DNA of 64,000 bases from an uncultured Bacteroidales bacterium (GTDB lineage Bacteria; Bacteroidota; Bacteroidia; Bacteroidales; UBA3663): assembly GCA_905235375.1 (NCBI GenBank), contig CAJOLH010000003.1, forward strand, positions 85,268-149,267, in the 5' to 3' direction. Positions 3,992-46,769 of the stretch are shown one piece after another. The notes beneath the pieces were generated by a model that worked only from the letters and a program-made list of their open reading frames with translations, was not told the DNA's origin and did no database searches. The translations under genes and the position numbers were made by a program. How positions within the stretch are numbered: position 1 is the stretch's first letter; each line of letters opens with the position of its first letter.

Positions 3992-5079
3992 TGAAACAAC
4001 GCCTTTTATCCCTCGATGTCTTGCGCGGCCTGACAGTGGCAAGCATGATTCTGGTCAACAACGGCTGGGAGCATGATTCGTTCGAATGCCTGAACCATGC
4101 CAAGTGGAATGGGCTATCAATGAGCGACCTTGTGTTCCCCTTCTTCCTATTCATGGTAGGTGTATCAATCTATATTTCCATGAGCCGCCATGCTGGTGAA
4201 TCTGGGCTTATCCGCAAGATCCTGAAACGCACATTGCTGTTGTTTGTCATTGGTGTTGCACTCCATGCCTGGGATATGCTTATCTGGGGCGATGGTGCCG
4301 ACATTCCGTCTCGTCTGCGTTTCTGGGGTGTGTTGCAGCGAATTGCCCTCAGCTATTGTTTTGCCGCTCTGTTCTTCCACCTTGCGAAAGGACGTTACCT
4401 GTGGCATGCCATCGTCACGCTGCTCGTCGTTTACACCATCATCCTCATCGCTGGCAATGGCTACGCTGAGGATCCCGAACAAAACCTGCTGGCGCGCATC
4501 GACCGCAATCTCTTTGGCCAGCACATCTATCAGAAAGTTCTCGTTGGGCGCACGCCTGTCGATCCCGAAGGCCTCGTCGGTGTGATAGCTGGTGTGGCTC
4601 ATACCCTGCTCGGTGTGGTTTGCGGGCGCGCCATCATGACAGGGCGTGACACCAAAGAGCGCATCATGCAGCTGCTTGTCATCGCCGTCTCAATCGGACT
4701 GACAGGTTATATGCTCAGCTATGCCTTGCCGCTCAATAAGCGCATCTGGTCACCCTCCTTCACGCTGGTGACCTGCGGAATGGCAGCCAGCCTGCTCGGC
4801 ATCCTCACCTACGTCATCGACCTGCAAGGGCACAACCACTGGTGCCGCATCTTCCAGCAGTTCGGAATGAACGCACTCTTCATCTACATTGTCAGCGAAA
4901 TGCTGCCTTCGGTGCTGGGTGTTACCGGCATCAGCGAGGCTATCCACAACTTCTGGATTGCCATTTTCGGCAACGAACTCCTTCAGTATGCCAGTCTGTC
5001 CTATGCACTCACCATCGTTTCCGTCATGGCGCTACTGGCATGGTTGTTAGACAAATATAAAATCTACATAAAGATATGA
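3991..5079 (+). CDS. Heparan-alpha-glucosaminide N-acetyltransferase-like membrane protein (DUF5009/DUF1624 type)
   Basis: Polytopic membrane protein. Its N-terminus (RLLSLDVLRGLTVASMILVNNG) resembles the HGSNAT signature RxxSxDxxRGxxxxxMxxVN. Confidence 0.75.
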   Translation: MKQRLLSLDVLRGLTVASMILVNNGWEHDSFECLNHAKWNGLSMSDLVFPFFLFMVGVSIYISMSRHAGESGLIRKILKRTLLLFVIGVALHAWDMLIWGDGADIPSRLRFWGVLQRIALSYCFAALFFHLAKGRYLWHAIVTLLVVYTIILIAGNGYAEDPEQNLLARIDRNLFGQHIYQKVLVGRTPVDPEGLVGVIAGVAHTLLGVVCGRAIMTGRDTKERIMQLLVIAVSIGLTGYMLSYALPLNKRIWSPSFTLVTCGMAASLLGILTYVIDLQGHNHWCRIFQQFGMNALFIYIVSEMLPSVLGVTGISEAIHNFWIAIFGNELLQYASLSYALTIVSVMALLAWLLDKYKIYIKI

Positions 5080-6503
5080 CACACACAACTTCCCGTTCAC
5101 TGACCAAGGGCATTTGCAGCGTATTCGCCGCTTGTTCAGCCGCCCTTCTCCTCATCGCTTGCAACCAAACTTCCAACAATGGCGATGGCACCACCTACAA
5201 CGTGCTCAACTTCGGAGCCAAGGGCGATGGCATTACCGATGACGCTGCTGCTATCCAGAAAGCCATCGATGCTTGTTCAGCCCAAGGTGGCGGACAAGTG
5301 ATTTTCCCTGCTGGTCACACGTTCCTGAGCGGTCCTGTCGAACTCAAGTCCAACGTCGATTACCACCTCGAACCGAATGCCACTTGGTTGGCCAATCCCG
5401 ACGAGAGCATCTACAAACTGAGCGCCTTCAAGGAGAACGAGGGAGAAGGCATGATGTGGATATGGACACAAGACACCGAGAATATCTCCATCACCGGCCA
5501 GGGCACCATCGACGGCAACGGCATCAGCTTCATGGGCGAAGAACTGCTCGACAGCTACGAACTTAAACCTGTCGATAAGTTTGACCCACGTCCGCACGTG
5601 CTCACCCTCATTGGTGTCAAAAAGCTTCAGATTCGCGATGTCACCATCCGCAACGGTGCCTACTGGACCGTCCATCTTATCGGTTGCTACGATGCCTCTA
5701 TCATCGGTATCTCGCTGCTCAACAACCTCAAGATTCGCAATGGCGACGGCATCGACATCGACCACTCAAAGAAAGTGCGCATCGCCGACTGCTACATCAC
5801 TTCGGGCGATGACTGCATCTGCCTCAAGAACCGCCGCGAATGGGAGGAATATGGTCCCTGCAAGGACATTGTCGTTACCAACTGCGTCATGACAGGCCGC
5901 TCCTGTGCCATCAAGATTGGTTCGGAAAACATGGACAGCATCAGCGACGTACTTGTCCAAAACTGCGTCATCAAAGCTTCGAACCGTGGCATCGGCATCC
6001 AGAACCGCGACGAAGGCACCGTGACCAACGTCGTATTCGACAACCTCATCGTCGAGGGCTACTATTTCAGCGATGTCTGGTGGGGCAAGGCAGAGCCTAT
6101 CTATGTCACTTCCTATCCCCGCGCTTCGAGCAATCATAAGGACGGCAACTGGCGCTTCCCCAAGGGCAAGACCGAAGGCGAATGTGGTGAAGTCAGCGAC
6201 ATCTGGTTCCGCAACGTGGTCTGCACCTCCGAGAATGGCTCATTCATCGGTGGAGATGTTCCTGGCAAGGTTCACGACATCCACATCGTCGATAGTCAGT
6301 TCACCCTCGGCAAGGTGACCGATTATCCCGGTGGACAATACGACAAGCGCCCCTGTCAGGGCGAAGGCTTCGTCAACGGGCCCACTTACGGTTTCTATGT
6401 CGAAAATACTTCGAACATCGAAATCCGCAACTGCACCGTCAAGCAGGGTGCCGTGCCCATCAACAACTATGGCGGCGTACAGAAGTTTGTCAATGTGAAG
6501 TAG
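5076..6503 (+). CDS. GH28-like glycoside hydrolase (pectate-lyase-fold beta-helix), lipoprotein
   Basis: ATGA overlap with the upstream gene. Lipobox LLIAC. YNVLNFGAKGDGITDDAAAIQKAIDAC...GGGQVIFPAG is the typical N-terminus of GH28 / pectate lyase superfamily proteins. Confidence 0.8.
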   Translation: MTHTTSRSLTKGICSVFAACSAALLLIACNQTSNNGDGTTYNVLNFGAKGDGITDDAAAIQKAIDACSAQGGGQVIFPAGHTFLSGPVELKSNVDYHLEPNATWLANPDESIYKLSAFKENEGEGMMWIWTQDTENISITGQGTIDGNGISFMGEELLDSYELKPVDKFDPRPHVLTLIGVKKLQIRDVTIRNGAYWTVHLIGCYDASIIGISLLNNLKIRNGDGIDIDHSKKVRIADCYITSGDDCICLKNRREWEEYGPCKDIVVTNCVMTGRSCAIKIGSENMDSISDVLVQNCVIKASNRGIGIQNRDEGTVTNVVFDNLIVEGYYFSDVWWGKAEPIYVTSYPRASSNHKDGNWRFPKGKTEGECGEVSDIWFRNVVCTSENGSFIGGDVPGKVHDIHIVDSQFTLGKVTDYPGGQYDKRPCQGEGFVNGPTYGFYVENTSNIEIRNCTVKQGAVPINNYGGVQKFVNVK

Positions 6504-6560
6504 AAGATGTAATTCCGTTTCGCTGTTTTCGTTGTTTTCGGAATTAAAATAATAATCGTG

Positions 6561-8096
6561 ATGAAAATAATCAACCGCTCCATCCTTTTCGTGCTTGCTT
6601 TGGGCAGCCTGCTCCTGATGTCTTCATGTCGTCGGGCAGGTTCGACCAATGCCAAGGTGACGTACGATTATCCCGCAACCCTCACCGAAGCGCAGCTCCT
6701 TGCCAATCCGAATCTTTTAGGTGGCATTTATGCGGCTTATCCTGGCGCATCCGAAGAGAGTCTTACTCCCGTTCCCTATGGCTACGAAGCCTTCTACATC
6801 AGCCACTACAATCGTCACGGCTCGCGTTACCAGCCCAACGACAGCCGTTATGCCAACACGCTGAAGCGGCTTCAGGACGGACATCAGCGCGGCGTACTCA
6901 CCGAATATGGCGAATCGCTCCTCCCTCGCATCCAGCTGCTATGCGACTCCTGCTTAGGGCATGGAGGGCAGCTCAGTTCAGTGGGTGTGGAACAACTCGT
7001 CGGCATCGGAGCACGAATGGGGCGCAATTTCCGCGAAGTCTTTGCCCAGACCATACCCGAAGACAAAACTGCTCCCGAGACAAAACGCCGCAAATTCGTC
7101 AGTGCTCGCGCCAGTGTCGTGCCACGTTGTGGAGCCTCGATGCGCGCTTTCTGTGCAGGTTTGGAATCGACTTACTTCGATTGTTTCCCTGCCCTTGAAC
7201 CCAATGCCGTAGTCAAGACCGACAGCGCTGATATGGCCTACATTGCTTACGACAGTCCCGAAATGAAAGCACTCAGCAGCCGAAATGCCTCCTGGCAGCA
7301 AGATTATGACAAATTCAAGGTGGAGCACGTCAATCGCGACCGTTTCATCCAGGCCATCTTCAAGGATGCTACAGGTGTCGATACCTTGAACATGGCAATC
7401 GACCTCTACTGGCTCGTCGTGGGTATGCAGGATGTCGATGTGCCGGGGTGTGACCTGAGCGATGTCTTCACGCCCGAGGAACTTCTTCAGTGCTACCAAT
7501 GCGTCAACTACCGCATGTATATCTGCAATGCCAACTGCCCCCGCAGCAACAACATTCCAGCCCAAAGTGCCTCTACCCTATTGAGGAATATCATCGAAAG
7601 CGCCGATGCCGCCATCGCCACCGATACCATCGCCGCGCATCTTCGCTTCGGTCACGACAGCAACCTCCTGCGCCTCCTCGCCCTGATGCACATCCACAAT
7701 GCCGCCAACAGCGAAAGCGATCCCTCAAAGTATTGGCAGGCATGGCAGGAATGTACCCTATCCCCAATGGCCGCGAATGTGCAACTCATCTTCTATCGCC
7801 CCTCAAACCCCTCAAACCCCTCAAACCCCTCAAACCTCTCAAACCCCTCAAACCCCTCAAACCTCTCAAACCCTTCAAACCCCTCAAGCCCTTCAAACCC
7901 TTCAAACCTCTCACCCCCCTCCACCCCTTCCCCCATCCTCGTCCGAATCCTCCTCAACGAACACGAGACCTTACTTGATGCCGACCTCCAGCCCACCGAT
8001 GGCTGTTTCTACCGATGGTCAGACCTCCGTTCCTTCTGGTCCACACAGATTGTGGATAACGGAGCAGATGGGATCGGAACGGTGAACATTCAGTAA
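6561..8096 (+). CDS. Histidine acid phosphatase (branch 2, MINPP-like), lipoprotein, carrying a PSN-repeat insertion
   Basis: RHGSRY catalytic motif and a downstream HD motif (RFGHDSNLL). Lipobox LLLMSSC. The ATG at 6561 was preferred to the GTG at 6558. Confidence 0.75.
   Translation: MKIINRSILFVLALGSLLLMSSCRRAGSTNAKVTYDYPATLTEAQLLANPNLLGGIYAAYPGASEESLTPVPYGYEAFYISHYNRHGSRYQPNDSRYANTLKRLQDGHQRGVLTEYGESLLPRIQLLCDSCLGHGGQLSSVGVEQLVGIGARMGRNFREVFAQTIPEDKTAPETKRRKFVSARASVVPRCGASMRAFCAGLESTYFDCFPALEPNAVVKTDSADMAYIAYDSPEMKALSSRNASWQQDYDKFKVEHVNRDRFIQAIFKDATGVDTLNMAIDLYWLVVGMQDVDVPGCDLSDVFTPEELLQCYQCVNYRMYICNANCPRSNNIPAQSASTLLRNIIESADAAIATDTIAAHLRFGHDSNLLRLLALMHIHNAANSESDPSKYWQAWQECTLSPMAANVQLIFYRPSNPSNPSNPSNLSNPSNPSNLSNPSNPSSPSNPSNLSPPSTPSPILVRILLNEHETLLDADLQPTDGCFYRWSDLRSFWSTQIVDNGADGIGTVNIQ
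7799..7917 (+). repeat. About 13 tandem 9-bp units (YYTCAAACC) in-frame in the phosphatase, encoding (P/L)SN repeats
   Basis: Direct reading: cccctcaaacccctcaaacc...cttcaaacctctcacccc. Translated as PSNPSNPSNPSNLSNPSNPSNLSNPSNPSSPSNPSNLSPP. Confidence 0.95.
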
Positions 8097-8446: not shown

Positions 8447-10861
8447 TTATGACCCCATCGAAGGAGGTGCAGCCTCGGCAGATGTGCCTCGCTGCACGTT
8501 CGGCTCAGGTCTCATCACGACTTCAAGCACGCCACCAAGGGCGATGTCTTCGTGACGGAGGTAGTTGAGGTCGTAGGGCTTGCCGTTGAGGGTGACGCTT
8601 TGGATATAGACGTTCTGGGGCGAAGCATTTCGGACCGTCATCTTAAAGTCCTTGCCATTGGCGCCGTGGATTGTGAGCTGGTCGAAACAAGGAGAGCCTA
8701 ACGCATAATAAGGCATGCCGGGGCAAACAGGATAGAAGCCCATGGCCGAAAATACATACCATGCCGACATCTGACCTGCATCGTCATTGCCTGCCAAACC
8801 ATCGGCAGCCAGGCCATATTCGTCGTTCATGATTTGACGCACGCGCTGCTGCGTCTTCCAAGGCTGGCCCACATAGTCGTAGAGGTAGCTGATCTGATGG
8901 CAAGGCTCATTGCCGTGCCAGTAGCGTCCGCCTTCGAAGATGGTGTCCAGCTTGGCGGCAAAGGCTTCAGGACCACCCATCAGTTCGGCAAGACCAGCTA
9001 TGTCGTGAGGGACATACCATGTGTAGTGGCAGGGCTTGCCTTCGCAGATGTACTTCTGGAAACTGAACGGATCGCCATTGACCCAAGTGCCATCCTCATT
9101 GCGCCCATCGACCCAACCCAAAGCGGGATTATACACATTCTTATAATAGGCAGCACGGCGGAGCAAATCGTCGGCCACACTGTCGTGCCCCAATTCACGG
9201 GCGAAGAGCGAGAACACATAGTCGTCGTAGGCATACTCCATCGTGCGGCTGGTCTGTTCGTGCTTATGGAAAGCCTCTAATACCTCGTCCTGCACAGGGA
9301 TATAGCCATACTTGAGATAACTCGTCAAGGCGCGTCGTCCCTTGCCCTGCTCGTAGTCGGCAAAAGTGGCGGGCTGCTCGTAGGCATTCTTGCGAAGTGC
9401 CTCGTAGGCTTTGGCTACATCAAAGTTGCGAACGCCCTTGAAGTAGGCATCCACGGCCAGCGAAGCCACGTGGTCGCCTATCATCTCGGAGGTGTAACTG
9501 TTCCAGCACGGGAAGATGGGGAGCCAGCCACCATCGTCATACTTGTCGAGCAGTGACTGCACCATCTGTCCAGCTTTCTCGGGCTCGATGATACACATCA
9601 ATGGGTGCTGGGCACGATAGGTGTCCCACATCGAATAGTCCTCATAGTAAGTGCCGTCGGTGCTACGAATCTCAGTGCCACCTGCGTAGCTTGGATAGGA
9701 GCCATCGCAGTCGTTGAACTCGCGAGGCAGGAACGAGGCATGGTAGAGCGAAGTATAGAAACTGGTAAGCAACGCCCGGTCGCTGCTCTTGGCCTCGATG
9801 CGGCTCAGCGTCTGCTGCCAAGTGTCGGTCAATGTCTTCTGCAAAGCGTCGAAATCCCAGGCAGGAATCTCCTTGGCAAGATTTGCCTTGGCATGGGAAA
9901 CATCGGTGAACGAAGAGGCTGCCTTCACCAAAACCGTTTCTCCTGCCTCCACATGGAACTTCACGTAGGCACCCACTTCGTGCACTTCGGGTTCGGGCAC
10001 AAATTTGCGGTCATAGACGAGACCTTCGTTGGGGGTGTCGATGCGAGTCGTTCCCTCCAACTTGCCGTTGCAGTTATATACACCACCCTCCAAAATCTCC
10101 TTGTTCACCTTGACAACGAAATGTCCGTCGAAGCCGGCATATTCGCCCCAACCCTGATAGATGCGATGCACAGGATTCGAGCCCGTCATCTCCCCCGTCT
10201 CAGGGTCAAAGGCAACACGCCCCAAGCCCTCGTCGCTGTTGGGATTCATCACGAGATAGACATCGCCTGCCTCCCGATAGGTGAAACGGAAGATGGCCGA
10301 ACGTGGTGCCACAGTCATCTCAGCCTGTATGCCGTAGTCGGGCAGTTCCACGCTGTAATAGGCTGGCGTAGATACCTCCTTGTCGTGACTGAACTTCGAG
10401 CCACGCGCCAACGGATTGGTGATCAGTTCGCCGCCCAAAGGCATCAGGGTGAACGAACCGTAGTCCTGTGTCATGCCGCCCACAATCCAATGACTATTGC
10501 GGAAACCTTGTATCTCCTCGTCCTGATAGTAATAAGGCGAAATCTCCTTCTGCTCGGTGTCCTCGGTCTGAGCCACCCAGAAGTTCATGCCATGGGGCAC
10601 CAGCACTGCTGGAATACACTGCCCGGGATCGTGCGCCTGGTCGTAGCCTGCCATCGTTCCCTTCTTGCTCGTAGGGATGGGCTTCTGCTTGCGCTCCGTA
10701 CCCCAAAGGCTGGCAGCATCCTCACTGTAGTGCGCTCCCGTGCCGATCATCGTATCGACAAACTGCATGTAATCCTTTGACTCAGGTTGCTGAGTGCAAG
10801 ATATCAAGGCAGTCAAGCCCAAAAGCATAAGGCCATGATTCTTCAAGTTGTGTGTGTCCAT
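8447..10861 (-). CDS. GH92 alpha-mannosidase, lipoprotein
   Basis: 804-aa ORF. Signal plus Cys (LTALISC). Carries the GH92 block GNDDAGQMSAWYVFSAMGFYPVCPG. Confidence 0.9.
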   Translation of the reverse strand: MDTHNLKNHGLMLLGLTALISCTQQPESKDYMQFVDTMIGTGAHYSEDAASLWGTERKQKPIPTSKKGTMAGYDQAHDPGQCIPAVLVPHGMNFWVAQTEDTEQKEISPYYYQDEEIQGFRNSHWIVGGMTQDYGSFTLMPLGGELITNPLARGSKFSHDKEVSTPAYYSVELPDYGIQAEMTVAPRSAIFRFTYREAGDVYLVMNPNSDEGLGRVAFDPETGEMTGSNPVHRIYQGWGEYAGFDGHFVVKVNKEILEGGVYNCNGKLEGTTRIDTPNEGLVYDRKFVPEPEVHEVGAYVKFHVEAGETVLVKAASSFTDVSHAKANLAKEIPAWDFDALQKTLTDTWQQTLSRIEAKSSDRALLTSFYTSLYHASFLPREFNDCDGSYPSYAGGTEIRSTDGTYYEDYSMWDTYRAQHPLMCIIEPEKAGQMVQSLLDKYDDGGWLPIFPCWNSYTSEMIGDHVASLAVDAYFKGVRNFDVAKAYEALRKNAYEQPATFADYEQGKGRRALTSYLKYGYIPVQDEVLEAFHKHEQTSRTMEYAYDDYVFSLFARELGHDSVADDLLRRAAYYKNVYNPALGWVDGRNEDGTWVNGDPFSFQKYICEGKPCHYTWYVPHDIAGLAELMGGPEAFAAKLDTIFEGGRYWHGNEPCHQISYLYDYVGQPWKTQQRVRQIMNDEYGLAADGLAGNDDAGQMSAWYVFSAMGFYPVCPGMPYYALGSPCFDQLTIHGANGKDFKMTVRNASPQNVYIQSVTLNGKPYDLNYLRHEDIALGGVLEVVMRPEPNVQRGTSAEAAPPSMGS

Positions 10862-25098: not shown

Positions 25099-25118
25099 CA
25101 TGTCCCCGTGTCCCCTCC

Positions 25119-25176
25119 GCAGCCGTCCTTGGCTGTCCACTCCCCACCTGTCCCAGTCGCAGCCAAGTTTGGCTGC
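25119..25176 (+). repeat. Degenerate (GCAGCCGTCCTTGGCTG) plus exact (GCAGCCAAGTTTGGCTGC, 25159-25176) copies of the palindromic repeat, with GTCCCC flanks
   Basis: Direct reading. Confidence 0.85.
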
Positions 25177-25218
25177 AAAAAAATCCCCGAAAAATTTGCA
25201 TCTTTCCCCAAAATCCCC

Positions 25219-25226
25219 TATCTTTG
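25219..25226 (+). promoter_or_regulatory. Bacteroidota -7 box (TATCTTTG) for the PL1/CE8 gene
   Basis: Lies within the block AAAATCCCCTATCTTTGC (25210-25227), 45 nt upstream of the ATG at 25271. Confidence 0.55.
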
Positions 25227-25270
25227 CACCAGCTAATAAGCATTGTCAACTAACCACAACCCGCACCCCT

Positions 25271-28200
25271 ATGAAATCCACCCTTTTCTCCACCCTGCTC
25301 TCGGCCGTTGTCCTCCTGTGCACACTCTCAACGCCAGCCCTTGCCGAACGCCAGCTCGCCTTCCCCGGCGCCGAAGGCTACGGTCGCTACGTCACCGGCG
25401 GTCGTGGCGGCGAAGTCTGCTACGTCACCCGCAACGACGATTGCTCGGACAACAACCTCGTCGAAGGCACCCTCCGTTGGGCACTCAACCACGACAACGG
25501 CGGTCGTCCCCGCATCATTCTCTTCAACACCTCGGGCACCATCTACCTTGAGTCAAAGCTCAGGTTCCGCTTCCCCAACGTTTCCATCCTCGGCCAGTCG
25601 GCCCCCGGCGGAGGCATCTGCCTCACCGGCTACAACATGTATATCAACAACGACAACATCATCATCCGTTATGTGCGTTTCCGTGCCGGCGACATCCCCA
25701 ACAAGTCGATGACCGGCCTTGACATGGAGAACTGCGAAGGTGTCATCCTCGACCATTGCTCCATGACGTGGAGCATGGAGGAGTGCCTCACCGCCTACGA
25801 CAGCGACTCCACCACCGTCCAATGGTGCATCATCGGCGAAGGCCTCTACAACTCCAAGAACTCCAAGGGAGCACGTGCCTACGCCACCCAATGGGGAGGT
25901 GAGCACAGCACCATGCACCATACGCTCATCACCAACAGCCACTCGCGCGCCCCGCGCTTCAATGGCGTACGCTCCGTGTCGAACACCAAGGGCGAACACG
26001 ATTACCAGGTCGATTCTGAGTTTGCCAACAACGTCGTCTTCAACTGGAGCGGTGCTACCAACCAGTATGGTGGCGAATACGACAAGGCCACCGTTGAAGC
26101 CCCCGCATGGGCTAAGGATGACCCGGGCTACGATCGCGTATATCTCATCGGCAACTACTACCGCCCGGGTCCCGCCACGCAGCGCAACACCTCCAGCGCC
26201 CGCTACTGGTGTGCCCCCTCCACACCCTACGGCCAATGGTATCTTAGCGGAAACAAGTTCGAAGTGAACAGCCGTTGGGCACCCCAGAACAGCACCGTCT
26301 GGAGCGAAACCGAACTTAACAAGGTCAATGCCGACAACTACTACGGAGCCCAGTCGGGCAGCTCCAGCCGTGGCATCAACCTCACAGGCTCCAACTTCAC
26401 TACCTACACCCTCACCGAACTTCCATACGCCCTCAGCGGTCTCGAATATGAAAGTGCCGACGAAGCCTTTGCGAAAGTCACCAGCCGCGCCGGTGCATCC
26501 CTGCCGCGCTACGATGAGGTCGATCAGCGACTCCTCGACGAAGCCGCAGGCCGCATCGATCCGCAGTATGCCGGTGCTTCCATCCCCAACGAGAAAGGCA
26601 TCATCGATGCACCCGACGACGTCCAGCTCACCGAGCACGACACCTACGTCGTCGATGGTGTCACCTACACCAACTTCCCCTTCCTCGGGATGCGCGAGGG
26701 CGACCGCTACATCATCGATGCTGATTGCGACGGAATGCCCAACGCCTACGAGGACGAGATGGGCTTCAACAAGAACGACCCCACCGATGGCGCAGCCCTT
26801 GCTGCCAATGGCTACACCAACGTTGAGAACTACCTCAACGGCATTGCCGATGGCACTCTCCAGAAGTCGCGCTACGAGACCTCCGACTACGCCATCACAC
26901 CCGGCCATGACATGACCGGCGACGTCCACTACACATTCACCACAGGTCGCGCCGACGGCGAAGCGCCCCAAGGCGGCACCCTGCCCTTCGCCTCGCAGTA
27001 CGTCATTCCACAGAACACCTCCCTCTACCTCGATGGATACACGCTCATCGGCTGGACCAGCCAGGGAAAGACCTATTACATCGGCGATGTCGTCACTCTC
27101 GTCGAGGACATGACCTTCGCGCCCGTCTTCCAGAAGAACACCATCTCGATCGACGACCGTCGCCACGACACCCGCTGGACGTGGGACTTCACCCTACCTG
27201 CCGCCCCTAAGCTAAATGCAGAGGACGAAGGCATCTACGTCAATCAGAACGAGGTCGAAGGCATCTCCATCGACACCTATATCGAATATTCAGGCACCCG
27301 CGTCACCCTGCCCTTTCGCACAGGAGCCACAGCCTTTGTCAACGACACCAAGGTCGAATCCGATGTAAGCCCCGACTCCACCCTAGCCTTTATCACAGTG
27401 CCTACCGATGTCGCCCTACGCACCATCACGGTCCTCTTTCCCTACGTTGAGCCCTCCCATGCCCAATCGGGCAGCGTCACCATCAGCTGGCCCTGGAACA
27501 CGGGAGCCTACGTAGCTGCTGCCACCTTCAGCGACGATGACTCCGCCCTTGCCTTCGCCTCAGCCACCGCCACCTACAACGAGAATTATCTCAGCTATAT
27601 GTCCAAGACCGACAAGGTCGATAAGGAGAACTGGGTAGCCTTCCAACCTGCCGAACAGATCTCGACACCCGACCCCAACTACGTGGTTGAGTTCCGCGTC
27701 ATCCCCGCCGCAGGCGTCAGCTTCACCCCCACGTCCGTCAGCCTCAATGCCATGCGTTTTGGCACCGACGGTGGCAAGCTCGACATCTACGCCGTCTATG
27801 GCGACGAGGAAGTGCTCCTCGACGAAGCCCTCGTCCCAGGTCGCGACAATGCCGGCAAGACCCCCATCTACCACGACCTCTCAAACCCTTCAAACCTCTC
27901 AAACCCTTCAAACCTCTCAAACCTTTCAACCCTTTCAAACCCATTCTCCCTCCGCATCTACATCTACAGCCTCGGCAACTCCAAGCAGGTAGGATTCAAC
28001 CACATCACCATCAACGGGGACTGGAGCGGCAGCTCCTCAGCCGAGCAGTATAGCGTCAGTGCCGAAGCCCTGCCCGCCGAAGGAGGCTCAGTGACCCTCT
28101 CTCCCGCAGGCGGTCTTTATCGCGAAGGCACGGTCATCACCCTCAAAGCCACGCCCAACGAAGGCTACAACTTCGTAGGCTGGACCGACGAGGATGAGAA

Positions 28201-29563
28201 CCTTGTCAGCAAAGATCCCTCCTTCGAACACACCGTCACCTCTGACGCCTACTTCTTCGCCAACTTCAAGGCTTACAGCGCCTACGACGAGATCTTCGAG
28301 CACTGCCGTCCCTTCGATGCCGCAGTCCGTACCATCGACGAGCTTCTTGTCGCCCTCGATGCAGCAGCCAAGCGGCCCTCCCCCGACCAGCGCTATCGCA
28401 TCTTCCTTTTCGATGGCACCTACGACTTCGGCACCACTGCCCTCACCAAAGTGCCCGGCAACACCTCGCTCATCGGCGAAAGCATGGAGGGCGTGCTTCT
28501 CATGAACGATCCTGGCACCGTCACAAAGTACCAGGACGAGACGCCCGTGCTCTTCATCGACCAGAATCAGAACGGCGTCTATATGCAGGATCTCACCATC
28601 CGCCAGGCACGCGACTGGGACAGCGGCCGCTCCAAGGGCCAGGCCATCGCCCTGCGCCAGCGCGGCAAGCAGGCAATCTACAAGAACGTGCGTCTGCAGG
28701 GCGTGCAGGACACCTACTATCTCAACAAGGCCGATGCCACCGCCTACTTCGAGGATTGCGACATCGCCGGCGAAGTCGATTTCATCTATGGCGACGGCAC
28801 GATGTTCTTCCAACGCTGTACCCTCCGCCCCCTCAGTTCTGGAGCCTGCATCACCGCCCCCAACACCCAGCCCGCCTACAAGGGCATCGTCTTCGACCGC
28901 TGCACCATCGATGGTGCCGAAGGCTATCGTCTGGGGCGTCCGTGGGGCGACTCACCTGCCAGCACCTTCCTCCACACCACCATGCGCTCCCTGCCCAATG
29001 CCGCAGGTTGGGGCTCAATGACGTCAGGCCTCGTCGTTCGCTTCCATGAGTTCGACTCGTGCGATGCCGAAGGCAATCCGCTCGACCTCAGTGCTCGCTC
29101 CATCAGCGCCTGCAATGCCGCCGCTACCTCCGACCCCTGCGTCATCACCGAAGAGCAGGCTGCCGACTACACGCTCGACAAGGTGTTCCCCAACTGGTAC
29201 CCGCAGAGCTTCACCGTACAACTCAGCACCGAAATGGTAATCGCCGACCGCACGCTCACCTGGGAATGTCCCGACACGGCCTTAGGCTTCGTCGTATGCA
29301 AGGACGGTCATCCCGTAGCCTTCACCACTGACCTCTCCTACACCCTGCCCGACGATGACACCGCCAGCACTTATTCCCTGCGCGTCATCAACGAGATGGG
29401 CGGTCTTGGCCCAGCGTACAATGCCGTCACAGGCATTCGTCAGCTATTCACCGACCGCATCCCCACCGACACCCCCACCACCTTTCACAACCTCCTCGGC
29501 CAAAAAGTATCCTCCAATTACCGAGGGATTGTGATCAGCAGCAAGGGAATCATGATGAAATGA
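25271..29563 (+). CDS. Multidomain pectin-degrading enzyme (1430 aa): N-terminal PL1 pectate lyase, Ca-binding-like and Listeria-Bacteroides-type repeat domains, C-terminal CE8 pectin methylesterase, and a T9SS-like tail
   Basis: PL1 evidence: AFPGAEGYGRYVTGGRGG, DHCSMTWSMEE, HSRAPRFNGVR. CE8 evidence: GQAIALRQRG, LQGVQDTYYL, VDFIYGDG, YRLGRPWG. The GYNFVGWTDED and YTLIGWTSQG repeats are present. The C-terminus is FHNLLGQKVSSNYRGIVISSKGIMMK. The start is set at MKSTLFSTLLSAVVLLC. Confidence 0.88.
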   Translation: MKSTLFSTLLSAVVLLCTLSTPALAERQLAFPGAEGYGRYVTGGRGGEVCYVTRNDDCSDNNLVEGTLRWALNHDNGGRPRIILFNTSGTIYLESKLRFRFPNVSILGQSAPGGGICLTGYNMYINNDNIIIRYVRFRAGDIPNKSMTGLDMENCEGVILDHCSMTWSMEECLTAYDSDSTTVQWCIIGEGLYNSKNSKGARAYATQWGGEHSTMHHTLITNSHSRAPRFNGVRSVSNTKGEHDYQVDSEFANNVVFNWSGATNQYGGEYDKATVEAPAWAKDDPGYDRVYLIGNYYRPGPATQRNTSSARYWCAPSTPYGQWYLSGNKFEVNSRWAPQNSTVWSETELNKVNADNYYGAQSGSSSRGINLTGSNFTTYTLTELPYALSGLEYESADEAFAKVTSRAGASLPRYDEVDQRLLDEAAGRIDPQYAGASIPNEKGIIDAPDDVQLTEHDTYVVDGVTYTNFPFLGMREGDRYIIDADCDGMPNAYEDEMGFNKNDPTDGAALAANGYTNVENYLNGIADGTLQKSRYETSDYAITPGHDMTGDVHYTFTTGRADGEAPQGGTLPFASQYVIPQNTSLYLDGYTLIGWTSQGKTYYIGDVVTLVEDMTFAPVFQKNTISIDDRRHDTRWTWDFTLPAAPKLNAEDEGIYVNQNEVEGISIDTYIEYSGTRVTLPFRTGATAFVNDTKVESDVSPDSTLAFITVPTDVALRTITVLFPYVEPSHAQSGSVTISWPWNTGAYVAAATFSDDDSALAFASATATYNENYLSYMSKTDKVDKENWVAFQPAEQISTPDPNYVVEFRVIPAAGVSFTPTSVSLNAMRFGTDGGKLDIYAVYGDEEVLLDEALVPGRDNAGKTPIYHDLSNPSNLSNPSNLSNLSTLSNPFSLRIYIYSLGNSKQVGFNHITINGDWSGSSSAEQYSVSAEALPAEGGSVTLSPAGGLYREGTVITLKATPNEGYNFVGWTDEDENLVSKDPSFEHTVTSDAYFFANFKAYSAYDEIFEHCRPFDAAVRTIDELLVALDAAAKRPSPDQRYRIFLFDGTYDFGTTALTKVPGNTSLIGESMEGVLLMNDPGTVTKYQDETPVLFIDQNQNGVYMQDLTIRQARDWDSGRSKGQAIALRQRGKQAIYKNVRLQGVQDTYYLNKADATAYFEDCDIAGEVDFIYGDGTMFFQRCTLRPLSSGACITAPNTQPAYKGIVFDRCTIDGAEGYRLGRPWGDSPASTFLHTTMRSLPNAAGWGSMTSGLVVRFHEFDSCDAEGNPLDLSARSISACNAAATSDPCVITEEQAADYTLDKVFPNWYPQSFTVQLSTEMVIADRTLTWECPDTALGFVVCKDGHPVAFTTDLSYTLPDDDTASTYSLRVINEMGGLGPAYNAVTGIRQLFTDRIPTDTPTTFHNLLGQKVSSNYRGIVISSKGIMMK
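27879..27941 (+). repeat. Seven tandem 9-bp units (TCTCAAACC/CTTCAAACC) in-frame in the PL1/CE8 gene
   Basis: Direct reading. Encodes LSNPSNLSNPSNLSNLSTLSNP. It shares the identical 21-mer ACCTCTCAAACCCTTCAAACC with 7861-7881. Confidence 0.95.
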
Positions 29564-29887: not shown

Positions 29888-30330
29888 AGCACTCTGACGC
29901 GCAACAGAGTGCTTCCTCATTTTGCGCAAGCATCGCGACGGGCGACAGAGTGCTTGCTCCTATAGAATAGTGTACTCTGACGCGTGTCAGAGTGCTTGCT
30001 TCTACAGAATAGAGCATCGCGACGGGCGACAGAGTGCTTGCTCCTATAGAATAGTGTACTCTGATGCATGACAGAATGCTTGCTCCTACAGAATAGAGCA
30101 TCAGGACGCGCGGCAAAGTGCTTCCGCGATTAGATAGAGCATTCTGACGCGCGACAGAATGCTTACTCCTAAGGAATAGAATACTCTGACGCGCGACAGA
30201 GTGCTTGCTCCTACGGAATGAAGCATCACGACGCGCGACAGAGTGCTTCCGCGATTGGATAGAGCATTATGACGCGCGACAAAATGCTTGCTCCTACGGA
30301 ATAAAGCATTATGACGCGCGACAGAGTGCT
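29888..30330. repeat. Tandem array of 11 degenerate 41-42-bp units, each carrying inverted arms (G[C/T]ACTCTG-ACGCGCGA-CAGAGTGC)
   Basis: CAGAGTGC-type arms start at 29905, 29946, 29988, 30030, 30072, 30114, 30155, 30197, 30239, 30280 and 30322. The sequence between the arms is also conserved. Confidence 0.9.
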
Positions 30331-31720: not shown

Positions 31721-32476
31721 TTATCTGAATTCCCTCAACTTCTCGACATATCGCCAGAAGTAGATGAAGGGGTTGAATGCTATGCCGTGTTTGTGAAAGG
31801 CGCGGATATGGTCTTTCATGATTCGATAATGACTCTGCAAGCCTTTGGTTGTGGCTCCACCGATACGCATTGTCACCCAATCCTCCTCGACGTAGAGTGT
31901 CTTGATACGATTGAGATAAATGAGTCGCAGGAGGAACTCGAAGTCGGCTGCCACCTTATAATCGAGATCATAATAGCCGAACTTCTCCAAACATTCGCGT
32001 CGCAGATAGAAAGTAGGATGTGCCGGAATATAGCCCATCCGCATACGCTCAGGCGTAAACTTCTTGCTGCTATAGTAGCGCACAATCCGATTCGGATCCT
32101 TCGGCGAAACATAATGGACGTCGGCATAGACGGCATCCACGTCGGGATGCTGGTCGAAAGTGCGTGCTATGGTGGACAGGATATCGTTGCGCGTGAAGAA
32201 ATCGTCACTATTGAGGATGCCGATGACATCGCCCGTGGCACGAAGGCATCCACGATTGAACCCATCGTAGATTCCTTCGTCGGGACAACTCTCCAACTTC
32301 AACCGATTACCCAATCGGGAAGCGTATTCCTCGATGAGCTGCAATGTGCCATCGGTACTTCCCCCATCCTGTATGACCAGCTCGTAGTCATCGTAGTCTT
32401 GAGCCAACACGCCCTCAATGGTGCTACGCAATGTGCCAGCACTATTGTAGGTGGATGTCACGATAGATATTTTCAT
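31721..32476 (-). CDS. Family 2 glycosyltransferase
   Basis: MKISIVTSTYNSAGTLRSTIEGVLAQDYDDYELVIQDGGSTDGT is the classic GT2 N-terminus. Confidence 0.85.
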   Translation of the reverse strand: MKISIVTSTYNSAGTLRSTIEGVLAQDYDDYELVIQDGGSTDGTLQLIEEYASRLGNRLKLESCPDEGIYDGFNRGCLRATGDVIGILNSDDFFTRNDILSTIARTFDQHPDVDAVYADVHYVSPKDPNRIVRYYSSKKFTPERMRMGYIPAHPTFYLRRECLEKFGYYDLDYKVAADFEFLLRLIYLNRIKTLYVEEDWVTMRIGGATTKGLQSHYRIMKDHIRAFHKHGIAFNPFIYFWRYVEKLREFR

Positions 32477-32544: not shown

Positions 32545-32579
32545 AATTAACAATTAACGATTAACAATTAACAATTAAA
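32545..32579. repeat. Five tandem 7-bp units (AATTAAC)
   Basis: Direct reading: aattaac aattaac gattaac aattaac aattaaa. Confidence 0.8.
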
Positions 32580-36447: not shown

Positions 36448-36584
36448 GGGGAGGAGGATGAGGGGGTTAAGGGCAGCCAAACATGGCTGCCATGGGGACA
36501 AGGGGGGGGATGGAGTTGCGATGGCATCGCAACAGACGAAACGGGGAACGGGAGGAACGGGGAACGGGAGGGACGAAAGTGGGC
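36448..36584. repeat. Composite intergenic repeat: palindrome GGCAGCCAAACATGGCTGCC (36472-36491), palindrome GTTGCGATGGCATCGCAAC (36515-36533), and GGAACGGG direct repeats
   Basis: Direct reading. It fills the whole space between the CotH-like stop and the GT start. Confidence 0.85.
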
Positions 36585-45083: not shown

Positions 45084-46757
45084 TTATCGCTTCAGCCAAC
45101 GCTCTGGATTGACAGCATTGGCATTCTGATAGATCCAGAATCGGATCTCGGCTCGATTGCTTTCAGGTTCGGTCTTCAAGGTGCCCAGCTGCTGACGCGT
45201 TGAAACTTTCTGTCCAGCTCGAACAAAAACATTCTGCAAGTTCATATAAACCGAACGATAATTGCCGTGTTGCACAATGATGGTCCATTCCTCGCTCGTC
45301 TTGAAACAGCTTTGAACGACACCCTCGTAGATAGCGCAGGCGTGCGCTCCGACACGGGTGCTAAGCACGATGCTCGAGTTACCGCTGCTTGGATTATAAT
45401 GATCGACAAAAGCAAACGTGGCATCCAAGGGATAAGGCAACTTTCCACGATTATCGGCAAAGCTGCCCGACAACCTGCGGAAAGCATCGTCCTTCTTCAC
45501 CGTTGCTGAATTGTGGGTCGTATTTCTGGAGGGAACGGTGCCAGACGACTTTGAACTCGAAGCGCCACCCGTCGCGCCCTTCGATGCTGTAGCAGCACCC
45601 GTGCTCTTGTTCTCGCCAGCCTTTTTGGCAGCAGCTTCCTTACGTCGGGCTTCTTCCTCGGCTTTCTTGCGCGCCTCCTCAGCCTTGCGTATCTCTTCCT
45701 CAATCATACGTTGAATGGTCTTCTCCACCTCTGCCATTCGCTTGCGGTCGCGATCCAATTCGGACTGCAGTTCCTTGTTGTGCTTCTGCAGATTGGCAAT
45801 TTGTGCCTGCTGCTCCTGCTGTCGCTGGTCGAGCGAAGCACGTTCCTTCTCCAGATCCTGCAGGACGTTCTCATGGTCGGCACGAGCCTGTTCGAGCGCC
45901 TGTTTGGCCTCGGTGGTGGCATTGCGCTGCTCCAACAGCAGTTCGGCCTGTCCCTTGCGCCACTCTCCATAACGACGCAGATAACGAACACGTCGCATAC
46001 CCTCGAGCAAATCCCTGGCCGAAACGACAAAGAGCAGTTCATCATAACCGCTACGCCACTTATAGAGATGACGCATTGCTGCGGCATACTTCTTCTGCGT
46101 AGCATTGTGCAGTTTCTCGAGGTCACGAATCTCGCGACGCAGACTGTCCTCTTCGGCAACGATGGACTCTATCTCACGATGCTTGCTGTTGATGAGCGCC
46201 TGACGTTTACGTATCTCGTCGGCACGAATCTGGATATCACGATTCTGGCTCTTGAGCGAATTATTGTTGTTGCTGATGAGTTTCTCGGTATCCTTTATCT
46301 GTCGCTGCAGATCCCGCTGCTGCTTTTCGTAAGCCTGACGACTCATTGGCTTGCTTTTCTTCTTGCTGCTTGTCGAACTCTGCGAGCCCGTCCTCTTGGA
46401 GGAAGACTGCGAAGACTTCTTTGCCGTGCTCTGAGCAGGTTTCTTCTGCGTAGTTTGTGCAGGTTTCTTCTGTGTGGTCTGCGCGGGCTTCTTCTGCGTG
46501 GTCTGTGCAGGCTTTTTCTGTGTGGTCTGCGCGGGCTTTTTCTGCGTGGTCTGCGCGGGCTTCTTCTGCGTGGTCTGTGCGGGCTTCTTCTGCGTGGTCT
46601 GTGCGGGCTTCTTCTGCGTGGTCTGTGCGGGCTTCTTCTGCGTGGTAGTCTTCGTCGTTGTGGACTTCTGCTGAGCAAAACCGACAACACCATCGGGACC
46701 TGCCATCAGCAAGACCGAAAAGACAACGACCACAAAATATCGAAAGAAACGCTTCAT
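45084..46757 (-). CDS. M23-family peptidoglycan endopeptidase / EnvC-like protein with a coiled coil and a QKKPAQTT repeat tract
   Basis: Signal peptide, then 9 copies of QKKPAQTT, a long coiled coil, and a C-terminal LytM-like domain (GVVQSCF...IVQHGNYRSVYMNLQNVFVRAGQKVSTRQQLG). The ATG at 46757 was preferred to the GTG at 46766. Confidence 0.8.
   Translation of the reverse strand: MKRFFRYFVVVVFSVLLMAGPDGVVGFAQQKSTTTKTTTQKKPAQTTQKKPAQTTQKKPAQTTQKKPAQTTQKKPAQTTQKKPAQTTQKKPAQTTQKKPAQTTQKKPAQSTAKKSSQSSSKRTGSQSSTSSKKKSKPMSRQAYEKQQRDLQRQIKDTEKLISNNNNSLKSQNRDIQIRADEIRKRQALINSKHREIESIVAEEDSLRREIRDLEKLHNATQKKYAAAMRHLYKWRSGYDELLFVVSARDLLEGMRRVRYLRRYGEWRKGQAELLLEQRNATTEAKQALEQARADHENVLQDLEKERASLDQRQQEQQAQIANLQKHNKELQSELDRDRKRMAEVEKTIQRMIEEEIRKAEEARKKAEEEARRKEAAAKKAGENKSTGAATASKGATGGASSSKSSGTVPSRNTTHNSATVKKDDAFRRLSGSFADNRGKLPYPLDATFAFVDHYNPSSGNSSIVLSTRVGAHACAIYEGVVQSCFKTSEEWTIIVQHGNYRSVYMNLQNVFVRAGQKVSTRQQLGTLKTEPESNRAEIRFWIYQNANAVNPERWLKR
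46431..46646. repeat. Nine tandem 24-bp units encoding QKKPAQTT
   Basis: Direct reading. The units differ only at synonymous positions (CTGTGC/CTGCGC, GGG/AGG, CTTCTT/CTTTTT on the plus strand). Confidence 0.9.
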
Positions 46758-46769
46758 GGGGAACACGGC

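Follow-up and report, generated by a model that had tools for sequence, protein, structure and literature searches.

The stretch of DNA considered here, 64,000 nucleotides from an uncultured Bacteroidales bacterium and referred to as the window, contains at 6558..8096 on the plus strand an open reading frame (ORF) of 512 amino acids for a MINPP-type histidine acid phosphatase. Inside this gene, at 7799..7921 on the same strand, lies an array of about 13 tandem units of the nine-base sequence YYTCAAACC. The array, the enzyme that hosts it and the wider family of repeats to which it belongs are the subject of this text.

The phosphatase gene and its repeat tract

The host gene is recognized from its ORF, a Pfam match and a structure match. 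Pfam His_Phos_2 (PF00328) matches the protein with 38.2 bits against a cut-off of 23.6, and a search of the NCBIfam models returned no match. The catalytic motif RHGSRYQP occupies residues 86-93 and the HD proton-donor motif is found within GHDSN. In an alignment of twenty phosphatase homologues (A1), the DNA of which was retrieved for comparison of the array site, residues R86, H87, G88, S89, R90 and P93 are invariant, as are G365, H366 and D367. Translation more likely starts at the ATG at 6561, and judging by its sequence the N-terminus looks like a lipoprotein signal (..LLLMSSC).

In the phosphatase frame the array is read as (P/L/S)-S-N, in PSN and LSN triplets (PSNPSNPSNPSNLSNPSNPSNLSNPSNPSSPSNPSNLSPP..). 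Tandem Repeats Finder (TRF) reports a period of 9 over 7799-7921, with 13.7 copies, 87% matches and a score of 183. A two-unit pattern, YYTCAAACCYYTCAAACC, with two or fewer mismatches allowed, is matched 18 times in the window against 0.03 times expected from shuffles, and all 18 matches fall within just two arrays, at 7801-7917 and 27879-27941. The other two forward frames across the first array are also open (ORFs 7490..7978, reading LKP, and 7699..8085, reading PQT), as is one reverse frame (ORF 7793..7996, reading GFE). There is a single G in 119 nt of the array, its predicted RNA fold is 0 kcal/mol, and the window arrays are without palindromic structure. An earlier note on this DNA had described about 13 YYTCAAACC units in frame in a histidine acid phosphatase, with three open forward frames (PSN, LKP, PQT), and the TRF result, the pattern count and the ORF list bear out this description. 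The same note called the repeat a microsatellite. It is indeed a tandem repeat, but its 9-bp unit makes it a short-unit variable-number tandem repeat (VNTR), or "long simple sequence repeat" (LSSR), and not a classical microsatellite.

Solved structures of related enzymes can be used to locate the array within the fold. An AlphaFold (AF2) model of the phosphatase (predicted template modelling score, pTM, 0.79) retrieves MINPPs as its best Foldseek matches, with an E value of 4e-25 and a target-normalised TM of 0.87, at 22-26% identity to the matched structures. The closest solved relatives are the MINPPs of Prevotella sp. CAG:617 (7r5y) and B. thetaiotaomicron (4fdt and others), with which the phosphatase has the RHGxRxP and HD motifs and the fold in common. 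However, the alignment to these enzymes is interrupted exactly between ..NVQLIFYR and ILVRILLNE: MINPP alignments reach ..FYR, omit the repeat tract and restart at (I/L)xV(K/R)xLLNE. The corresponding site reads FYRRKG-SDILVK and FYRDR..IWVKILLNE in solved MINPPs, with a turn of 3-6 residues at the point where the window phosphatase has about 46. The fold is thus normal up to NVQLIFYR and again from ILVRILLNEHE, as had been noted earlier.

In the AF2 model, the tract is enclosed by two beta-strands. The first spans residues 407-415 (..NVQLIFYR; 7776..7802, plus strand), as assigned by DSSP and conserved in A1, and the second spans residues 461-466 (LVRILL; 7938..7955, plus strand), as found in the model, in A1 and in the MINPP alignment. 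Between them the model places a hairpin loop of residues 416-460 (7803..7937, plus strand), which comprises the array and a P/S-rich tail (SPPSTPSP). The per-residue model confidence (pLDDT) is below 50 across residues 420-453, and the flanking strands are confident. Because the gap in the MINPP alignment is matched by a low-pLDDT segment between modelled strands 407-415 and 461-466, the repeat is predicted to code for a disordered loop of about 46 residues at the tip of the last beta-hairpin of the phosphatase. The alignment with MINPP structures proposed in the earlier note therefore puts the loop at a beta-hairpin tip.

The phosphatase gene has as neighbours a GH28 gene (5076..6503) and a GH92 gene on the minus strand (8447..10861), and orthologous phosphatase loci have an HGSNAT-like acyltransferase as well as an alpha-L-fucosidase in their vicinity. 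These gene neighbours suggest a putative role in glycan processing rather than as a phytase.

Loop length among relatives

Orthologues with 76-79% identity to the phosphatase (P0006-8) have a 10-aa non-repetitive turn, KIGATTEDEV, at the array site. One orthologue lineage has PISTPISPSPDS there, and most homologues have 3-6 aa, as do the solved structures. Distant lineages have either a 5-aa turn or unrelated low-complexity inserts (P0009, P0014, P0015, P0034) at the hairpin tip. Since near orthologues have a non-repetitive turn, most homologues have a short one and the inserts of distant lineages are unrelated, the repeat tract in the phosphatase is not ancestral. These short turns and unrelated inserts in distant lineages also suggest that the hairpin tip is a permissive site and a general hot spot for insertion.

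The number of units at the orthologous phosphatase site takes the values 0, 1, 2, 3, 4, 5, ~9 and ~13, and the longest allele seen is that of the window. Among the loci compared (L numbers), about 9 units are found in L122, 5 in L091 and L124, 4 in L119, L133 and L135, and none in L116 and L118; one-unit and two-unit alleles are represented by P0125 and P0127. Of these, L091 represents the orthologous locus of a related species (about 86% nucleotide identity). The arrays of close orthologues are placed at the same codon as the window array, and the array of L121 is interrupted. In clusters of at least 90% identity, loop lengths of 9, 12, 15, 16, 19, 21, 24, 28, 31 and 33 aa are observed, mostly in 3-aa steps. 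Near relatives with 0 to ~9 units and with non-repetitive turns confirm the view of the earlier note that the tract is not an ancestral linker, and the comparison of copy number that it called for, run here between close relatives, gave 0 to ~13 units. Its expectation that a change in unit number would stay in frame and alter only the length of the loop agrees with the whole-unit allele series, with slippage as the presumed process.

The array most likely lengthens and shortens by whole units, through replication slippage or unequal exchange between units. As the unit amounts to three codons and holds no stop in any sense frame, such events would change only the length of the Pro/Ser/Asn loop and would leave the fold intact. 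A phase-variable contingency locus was also considered and rejected, since a 9-bp unit inside an ORF preserves the frame and every phosphatase allele seen is full length.

It is very improbable that the tract or its length is an artefact of assembly, produced by collapsed, expanded or chimeric reads. Most of the compared sequences are short-read contigs of metagenomes or metagenome-assembled genomes (MAGs), and the 123-bp array is near read length, so that a unit number could err. However, an in-frame array recurs at this codon across many assemblies that are independent of one another and differ in assembler and sample, array lengths differ by whole units, and the flanks are colinear with those of orthologues. 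An internal array is also present in L085, a MAG contig with a "tig" name that suggests long-read assembly.

A dispersed DNA repeat family

The second array of the window lies at 27876..27942 on the plus strand, as found by TRF and by pattern search, and consists of about 7 units of the YYTCAAACC type between the peptides PIYHD and LRIYIY. Its host is a large secreted pectate-lyase/pectinesterase, encoded by a 1487-aa ORF at 25100..29563 on the plus strand (Pfam Pectinesterase and Flg_new_2), with the ATG at 25271 as the likely start codon; NCBIfam indicates a PelZ/PemA-like protein, below the curated cut-offs. TC and CT variants alternate in this array and form an 18-bp super-unit, whereas the higher-order periodicity of the first array is 9/27 bp; the frame is S-N-P/L, as in the first array. 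Relatives of the pectinase that are at least 90% identical to one another have LSNPSNPTTSFA, LSNLSNSSNPFA or LSNPSNLSNTSTPFA (2-4 units) at this site, and others have a decayed 24-aa version in the DNA of which degenerate units are still visible. Alleles of 12, 15 and 24 aa and a decayed copy are therefore represented, and a homologue with 36% identity has a non-repetitive loop.

The 21-mer ACCTCTCAAACCCTTCAAACC occurs at three window positions, 7861, 27876 and 27894. The earlier note had pointed to its recurrence at 27876-27896, and this recurrence is real, but it is weak as a sign of copying. Because units differ only at the two Y positions, two-unit words are expected to be common to any two YYTCAAACC arrays; the 21-mer thus indicates family membership and was rejected as proof of recent copying. 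A G-quadruplex was likewise rejected as the common cause of the family. A regular expression (G3+N1-7, four times), applied to sequence only, finds two G-quadruplex-type motifs on the antisense strand of the first array, (GGGGTTTGA)x3+GGGG at 7799..7829 and a second at 7871-7900, and it finds none in the second array.

A scan for three units, with one genome per species, identified at least 115 stretches in about 57 assemblies, about 47 of which are Bacteroidota. The carriers among the matches listed include rumen and gut Bacteroidales, Prevotella, Paludibacter, Lentimicrobiaceae, Chitinophagales and Saprospiraceae, with up to 12 loci per genome in several genomes. Across loci the arrays are read as PSN, (P/F)LK, (P/L)QT, GFE or GLR/GLK, and some ORFs change frame in mid-array by way of a 10-bp unit. 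Whichever frame is read, units vary mainly at the two Y positions, and the G content is 1.5% over 1070 family units. Since the same DNA is read in several frames, the conserved object is the DNA unit and not the peptide. A peptide-level family (a "PSN linker") was accordingly rejected as the primary cause, the unit being read in five frames and present in leaders. The presence of the repeat elsewhere, anticipated in the earlier note, is confirmed by the second array and by the stretches in species-representative genomes. The search for the location and frame of (YYTCAAACC)n that it proposed has yielded both leader and in-gene arrays, in every open frame. Rather than an invariant unit number and a repeat confined to one place, there are 0-13 units at the phosphatase site and many other loci, and no distant lineage was found to encode a PSN-rich loop with non-repetitive DNA, the distant inserts being unrelated.

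Searches for the family in other collections returned little. The viral contigs scanned for the unit gave 5 matches only, which does not support carriage by phages, and Rfam assigned no family to the window or to seven array-bearing loci. In the open-access literature there was no paper with the repeat sequence in either orientation and no account of a family of this 9-mer, although such absence is weak evidence. Four loci (L008, L035, L037, L065) of QFQQ01, labelled a Citrobacter freundii MAG, have related arrays with TCCCAAACC and TCTGGAACC units; such arrays would not be expected in Enterobacteriaceae, and mis-binning or the existence of a separate family may account for them.

Arrays of the family most often stand in front of genes. 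Leader placement was analysed for 112 arrays away from locus ends, with the requirement that the downstream ATG open at least 100 codons. Such an ATG follows 45 of the 112 arrays on the C-rich strand (within 50 nt in 40 cases), compared with 12 on the G-rich strand. Of the arrays internal to long ORFs, 21 have the C-rich strand as sense and 2 the G-rich strand. A control with random positions gave 23% positives, a value inflated by the counting of internal in-frame ATGs, and for this reason the comparison of the two orientations and nine Pfam-verified N-termini were used instead. The nine downstream ORFs tested (MqnA, two ABC ATPases, PurE, MurG, CydA, ornithine carbamoyltransferase, Obg and Cmk) all encode full-length housekeeping proteins, in which the Pfam profile begins from its position 1-2 at residues 2-24. 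Because the profiles begin so near residue 1 in all nine, the ATGs are true starts and the arrays are leader sequences. The family is found mainly in leaders, ahead of the start codon and with C-rich sense, and the phosphatase array is a coding-region member; both window arrays are internal to ORFs, unlike the leader-type members. In the same genome, an 8-bp array of about 9 AATAACGG-like copies at 889-959 ends 10 nt before an ATG at 970 that starts a 780-aa protein with a signal peptide; this short tandem repeat is likewise of the leader type but is built from another unit.

A broader proposal, put forward here only tentatively and with rather low expectation, is that (YYTCAAACC)n serves the whole phylum Bacteroidota as a cis element. 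It would form a G-free, structure-free RNA leader immediately ahead of the start codon and, in a phylum without Shine-Dalgarno pairing, would affect translation or the stability of the mRNA. It would multiply by copying or exchange, as hinted at by the non-repeat module common to different arrays and by the REP-like hairpins next to some of them (both described below). It would also invade ORFs repeatedly, among them the essential purM, dnaX and gltB, and survive there as disordered loops of variable length.

In-frame YYTCAAACC arrays are found in conserved genes as well, namely PurM/AIR synthase, DnaX, GltB, ResB-CcsA and BatD (arrays interrupt conserved genes at L002, L042, L055, L097, L106, L108, L026 and L074). 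The lengths of PurM homologues climb like a ladder, in steps of 3 aa, through the range 384-415 aa, of which filled alleles cover 395-415 aa. The empty site reads DAMR-HEI-HGM, and the array is positioned between the His and Ile codons of the conserved HEI. PurM, an essential enzyme of the cytoplasm, thus repeats the story of the phosphatase. An array within a gene will probably survive only if its unit length keeps the frame, no sense frame is closed and the loop or linker that receives it is permissive.

These coding copies bear on the proposal that the PSN-rich loop has been selected as protein, be it as a spacer, as a glycosylated or protease-resistant loop, or as a variable epitope or phage-receptor decoy, with the DNA repeat serving to tune its length. 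Both window arrays are read in the S-N-P/L frame and both of their hosts are apparently secreted, coding copies elsewhere are dominated by the PSN (~11) and PQT (~8) frames over LKP, and the unrelated low-complexity inserts at the same hairpin tip indicate that a long loop may be useful. However, the unit turns up in all open frames and, more often than anywhere else, in leaders that are not translated, it occurs in the cytoplasmic housekeeping enzymes PurM, DnaX and GltB, and close relatives of the phosphatase do without the array. In addition, Pro, Leu and Ser swap freely at the Y positions, just as the bases do in non-coding copies. The O-glycosylation sequon of Bacteroidota is D-(S/T)-(A/I/L/V/M/T), and the loop contains no Asp and hence no such sequon. 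Selection of the loop as protein is accordingly considered unlikely.

How the arrays spread is hinted at by sequences within and beside them. A 30-nt non-repeat module, CTTCCCTCGGACGCGACC..GGGAGCAAC (CTTCCCTCGGACGCGACCNNNGGGAGCAAC), lies inside arrays of two unrelated genes, the phosphatase orthologue L121 (4234-4263) and the PurM gene of L142 (2347-2376). The two copies are identical at 28 of 30 positions and are read in frame as LPSDAT[E/N]GSN. Another PurM allele, L144, has a decayed copy, and the window arrays are without the module. Sharing of this kind points, at the level of sequence, to exchange between arrays or to a common source, and chance would not explain it. The module was rejected as a conserved hairpin, as its folding z-scores are -1.8 and +0.3 and the predicted structures differ between L121 and L142. 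In MAGs of Saprospiraceae and Chitinophagales, arrays often adjoin a conserved hairpin, TCGGCGGCTAAACCCGCCGGTAC, at L005, L011, L022, L024, L032 and L034, and the same hairpin stands at the array border of L044, L050, L069, L074, L102 and L114. Its reverse complement is GTAC followed by CGGCGG-GTTTAG-CCGCCG, which is REP-like, and it is found only in these two groups. A second border hairpin, TCCCGGAATAnCATTCCGGGATAC, occurs at L005, L071 and L112.

Such observations raise the possibility that arrays were delivered by a mobile or recombination process (a small non-autonomous element, REP/RAYT-like or MITE-like, or ectopic gene conversion between arrays) and then expanded locally, in which case the phosphatase array would have been inserted and not born in situ. 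Occurrence of the unit at many loci per genome and in distant orders, the exact placement of the PurM array within HEI, the 30-nt module in two unrelated genes and the REP-like hairpins that abut arrays in Saprospiraceae and Chitinophagales would all fit delivery of this kind. On the other hand, neither the window arrays, nor the orthologous phosphatase sites, nor the filled and empty PurM pair show a target-site duplication, terminal inverted repeats or a conserved flank. The two window arrays differ in periodicity, the one-unit and two-unit phosphatase alleles could be stages of stepwise growth just as well as of decay, the reading of the module as a conserved hairpin is not supported by folding, and the unit is rare in viral contigs. 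Delivery by a mobile process is therefore regarded as possible but doubtful.

Array-bearing loci also contain many unrelated 7-, 8-, 10- and 11-bp arrays, so the genomes that carry the family are generally prone to short tandem repeats. With its 9-bp unit and three open sense frames, YYTCAAACC can persist in genes, unlike 7- and 8-mers. Several other tandem repeats are present in the window. A 42-bp array of 10.6 copies occupies 29888-30330, in the gap after the pectinase gene, and each of its units contains a hairpin with a 9-bp stem, AGCACTCTG-ACGCGCGA-CAGAGTGCT (DNA fold -8.8 kcal/mol, z about -2). Other sequences form arrays with the same period of 42 in L091 (3582-4001, immediately downstream of the orthologous phosphatase gene), L106, L055, L076 and L088. 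A 24-bp coding VNTR of 9.6 copies at 46416-46646, encoding (KKPAQTTQ)n, lies near the N-terminus of a 560-aa ORF on the minus strand (45084..46766). The 7-mer AATTAAC is repeated five times at 32545-32578, 68 nt upstream of a minus-strand ORF that starts at 32476, and an AACGGGG/AACGGGAGG array is located at 36540-36575.

Taken together, the phosphatase tract is best read, with good though not full confidence, as a polymorphic coding VNTR, prone to slippage, which the protein tolerates in the form of a disordered loop and which arises as a by-product of a dispersed DNA repeat family. It is most likely not a functional or purpose-built linker. The data show the array with its frame and its place in the fold, the differences in copy number and the lack of the array in outgroups, and, for the family, its dispersal, strand bias and leader placement. 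Slippage as the mechanism, near-neutrality of the loop and any RNA-level reason for the lack of G are what we infer from these patterns. Several points weigh against this interpretation. The scan counts are sample-based and dominated by MAGs, and some loci are orthologous (L055/L106, L026/L074), which inflates the statistics. The preference for PSN and PQT over LKP means that selection does act at the level of the peptide, at least as a filter and probably only as one. Slippage is derived from the allele series between relatives rather than from direct measurement in the species of the window. A scan of JGI metagenomes with the left junction, TTCTATCGCCCCTCAAACC, gave 11 matches, of which 9 were unrelated chance contexts and 2 were related phosphatase alleles of 4 units, without a strain series of the window's own species. 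Neutrality of the loop for activity, export and surface exposure is an assumption, and the 64-kb window holds two coding arrays and no leader-type copy of the 9-mer.

Significance and comparison with known systems

In the phosphatase tract, nature offers a clear case of a hypervariable DNA repeat that determines how long a protein loop is. A MINPP hairpin that tolerates about 40 extra residues would be useful for the engineering of feed and gut enzymes. If the pattern holds in a full census, the family would offer a candidate leader element where translation-initiation signals are poorly understood, a source of rapid variation in protein length, and VNTR markers for strain typing of uncultured Bacteroidales. 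There is also a practical warning, as gene callers can extend ORFs through YYTCAAACC arrays and short-read assemblies may misreport unit numbers.

Among known systems, the LSSRs of prokaryotes are tandem repeats of 5-11 nt units that exceed the length expected by chance and for which slippage has been proposed (Mrazek, Guo & Shah 2007, as summarized in PMC4679880). In that summary, the repeats within genes are those whose unit length is divisible by three, since they can be resized without truncation of the protein, and the genomes named there as rich in LSSRs are those of Burkholderia, cyanobacteria, actinobacteria and Xanthomonas, with Bacteroidota not among them (PMC4679880). The phosphatase array resembles the LSSRs and coding VNTRs of this summary in that its unit is a multiple of three, its extent is far beyond chance and its length differs between relatives. 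It differs from what is outlined there in that one specific 9-mer, almost free of G and biased to the sense strand, recurs at many loci and in distant orders of one phylum.

As a precedent for one specific unit, the direct repeats of the heptamer TAACTGA, which are found in Beggiatoaceae, cyanobacteria and five Bacteroidetes, come closest (MacGregor 2015, PMC4679880). In most cases these tandem repeats, in forward orientation, precede a start codon by a few to about 40 nt; their patchy distribution suggests transfer, with no evident mechanism, and RNA binders of the S1/Csp type have been proposed as readers (PMC4679880). Leader-type YYTCAAACC copies behave alike. However, the TAACTGA unit is 7 nt long, contains a stop codon and is essentially intergenic, whereas YYTCAAACC is open in all sense frames and also occurs in ORFs. 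The two sequences are unrelated, and the window arrays are coding rather than leader copies.

Two further systems resemble the coding copies. In the staphylococcal Clf/Sdr proteins, an 18-bp repeat encoding SD is present in several genes per genome, varies in copy number and codes for a disordered spacer in secreted proteins. A DNA repeat shared between genes that codes for a variable disordered spacer in secreted proteins is also what the window arrays represent. The SD repeats, though, form a conserved, functional stalk at a fixed domain boundary, in one protein family and in one frame, whereas the proteins that contain YYTCAAACC are unrelated, the loops concerned lie within domains, several frames are used and non-coding leaders carry the unit too. 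Rickettsia palindromic elements (RPE) are reportedly selfish DNA inserted in frame in protein genes. Like YYTCAAACC, they are said to be dispersed and to lie in frame in unrelated genes, including housekeeping genes, at positions that the fold tolerates. They reportedly consist, however, of single palindromic units of 100-150 bp without unit-step polymorphism, whereas the window arrays are tandem and non-palindromic. If the tentative cis-element proposal is true, the phosphatase array would be the tandem-repeat counterpart of these in-frame selfish elements of Rickettsia.

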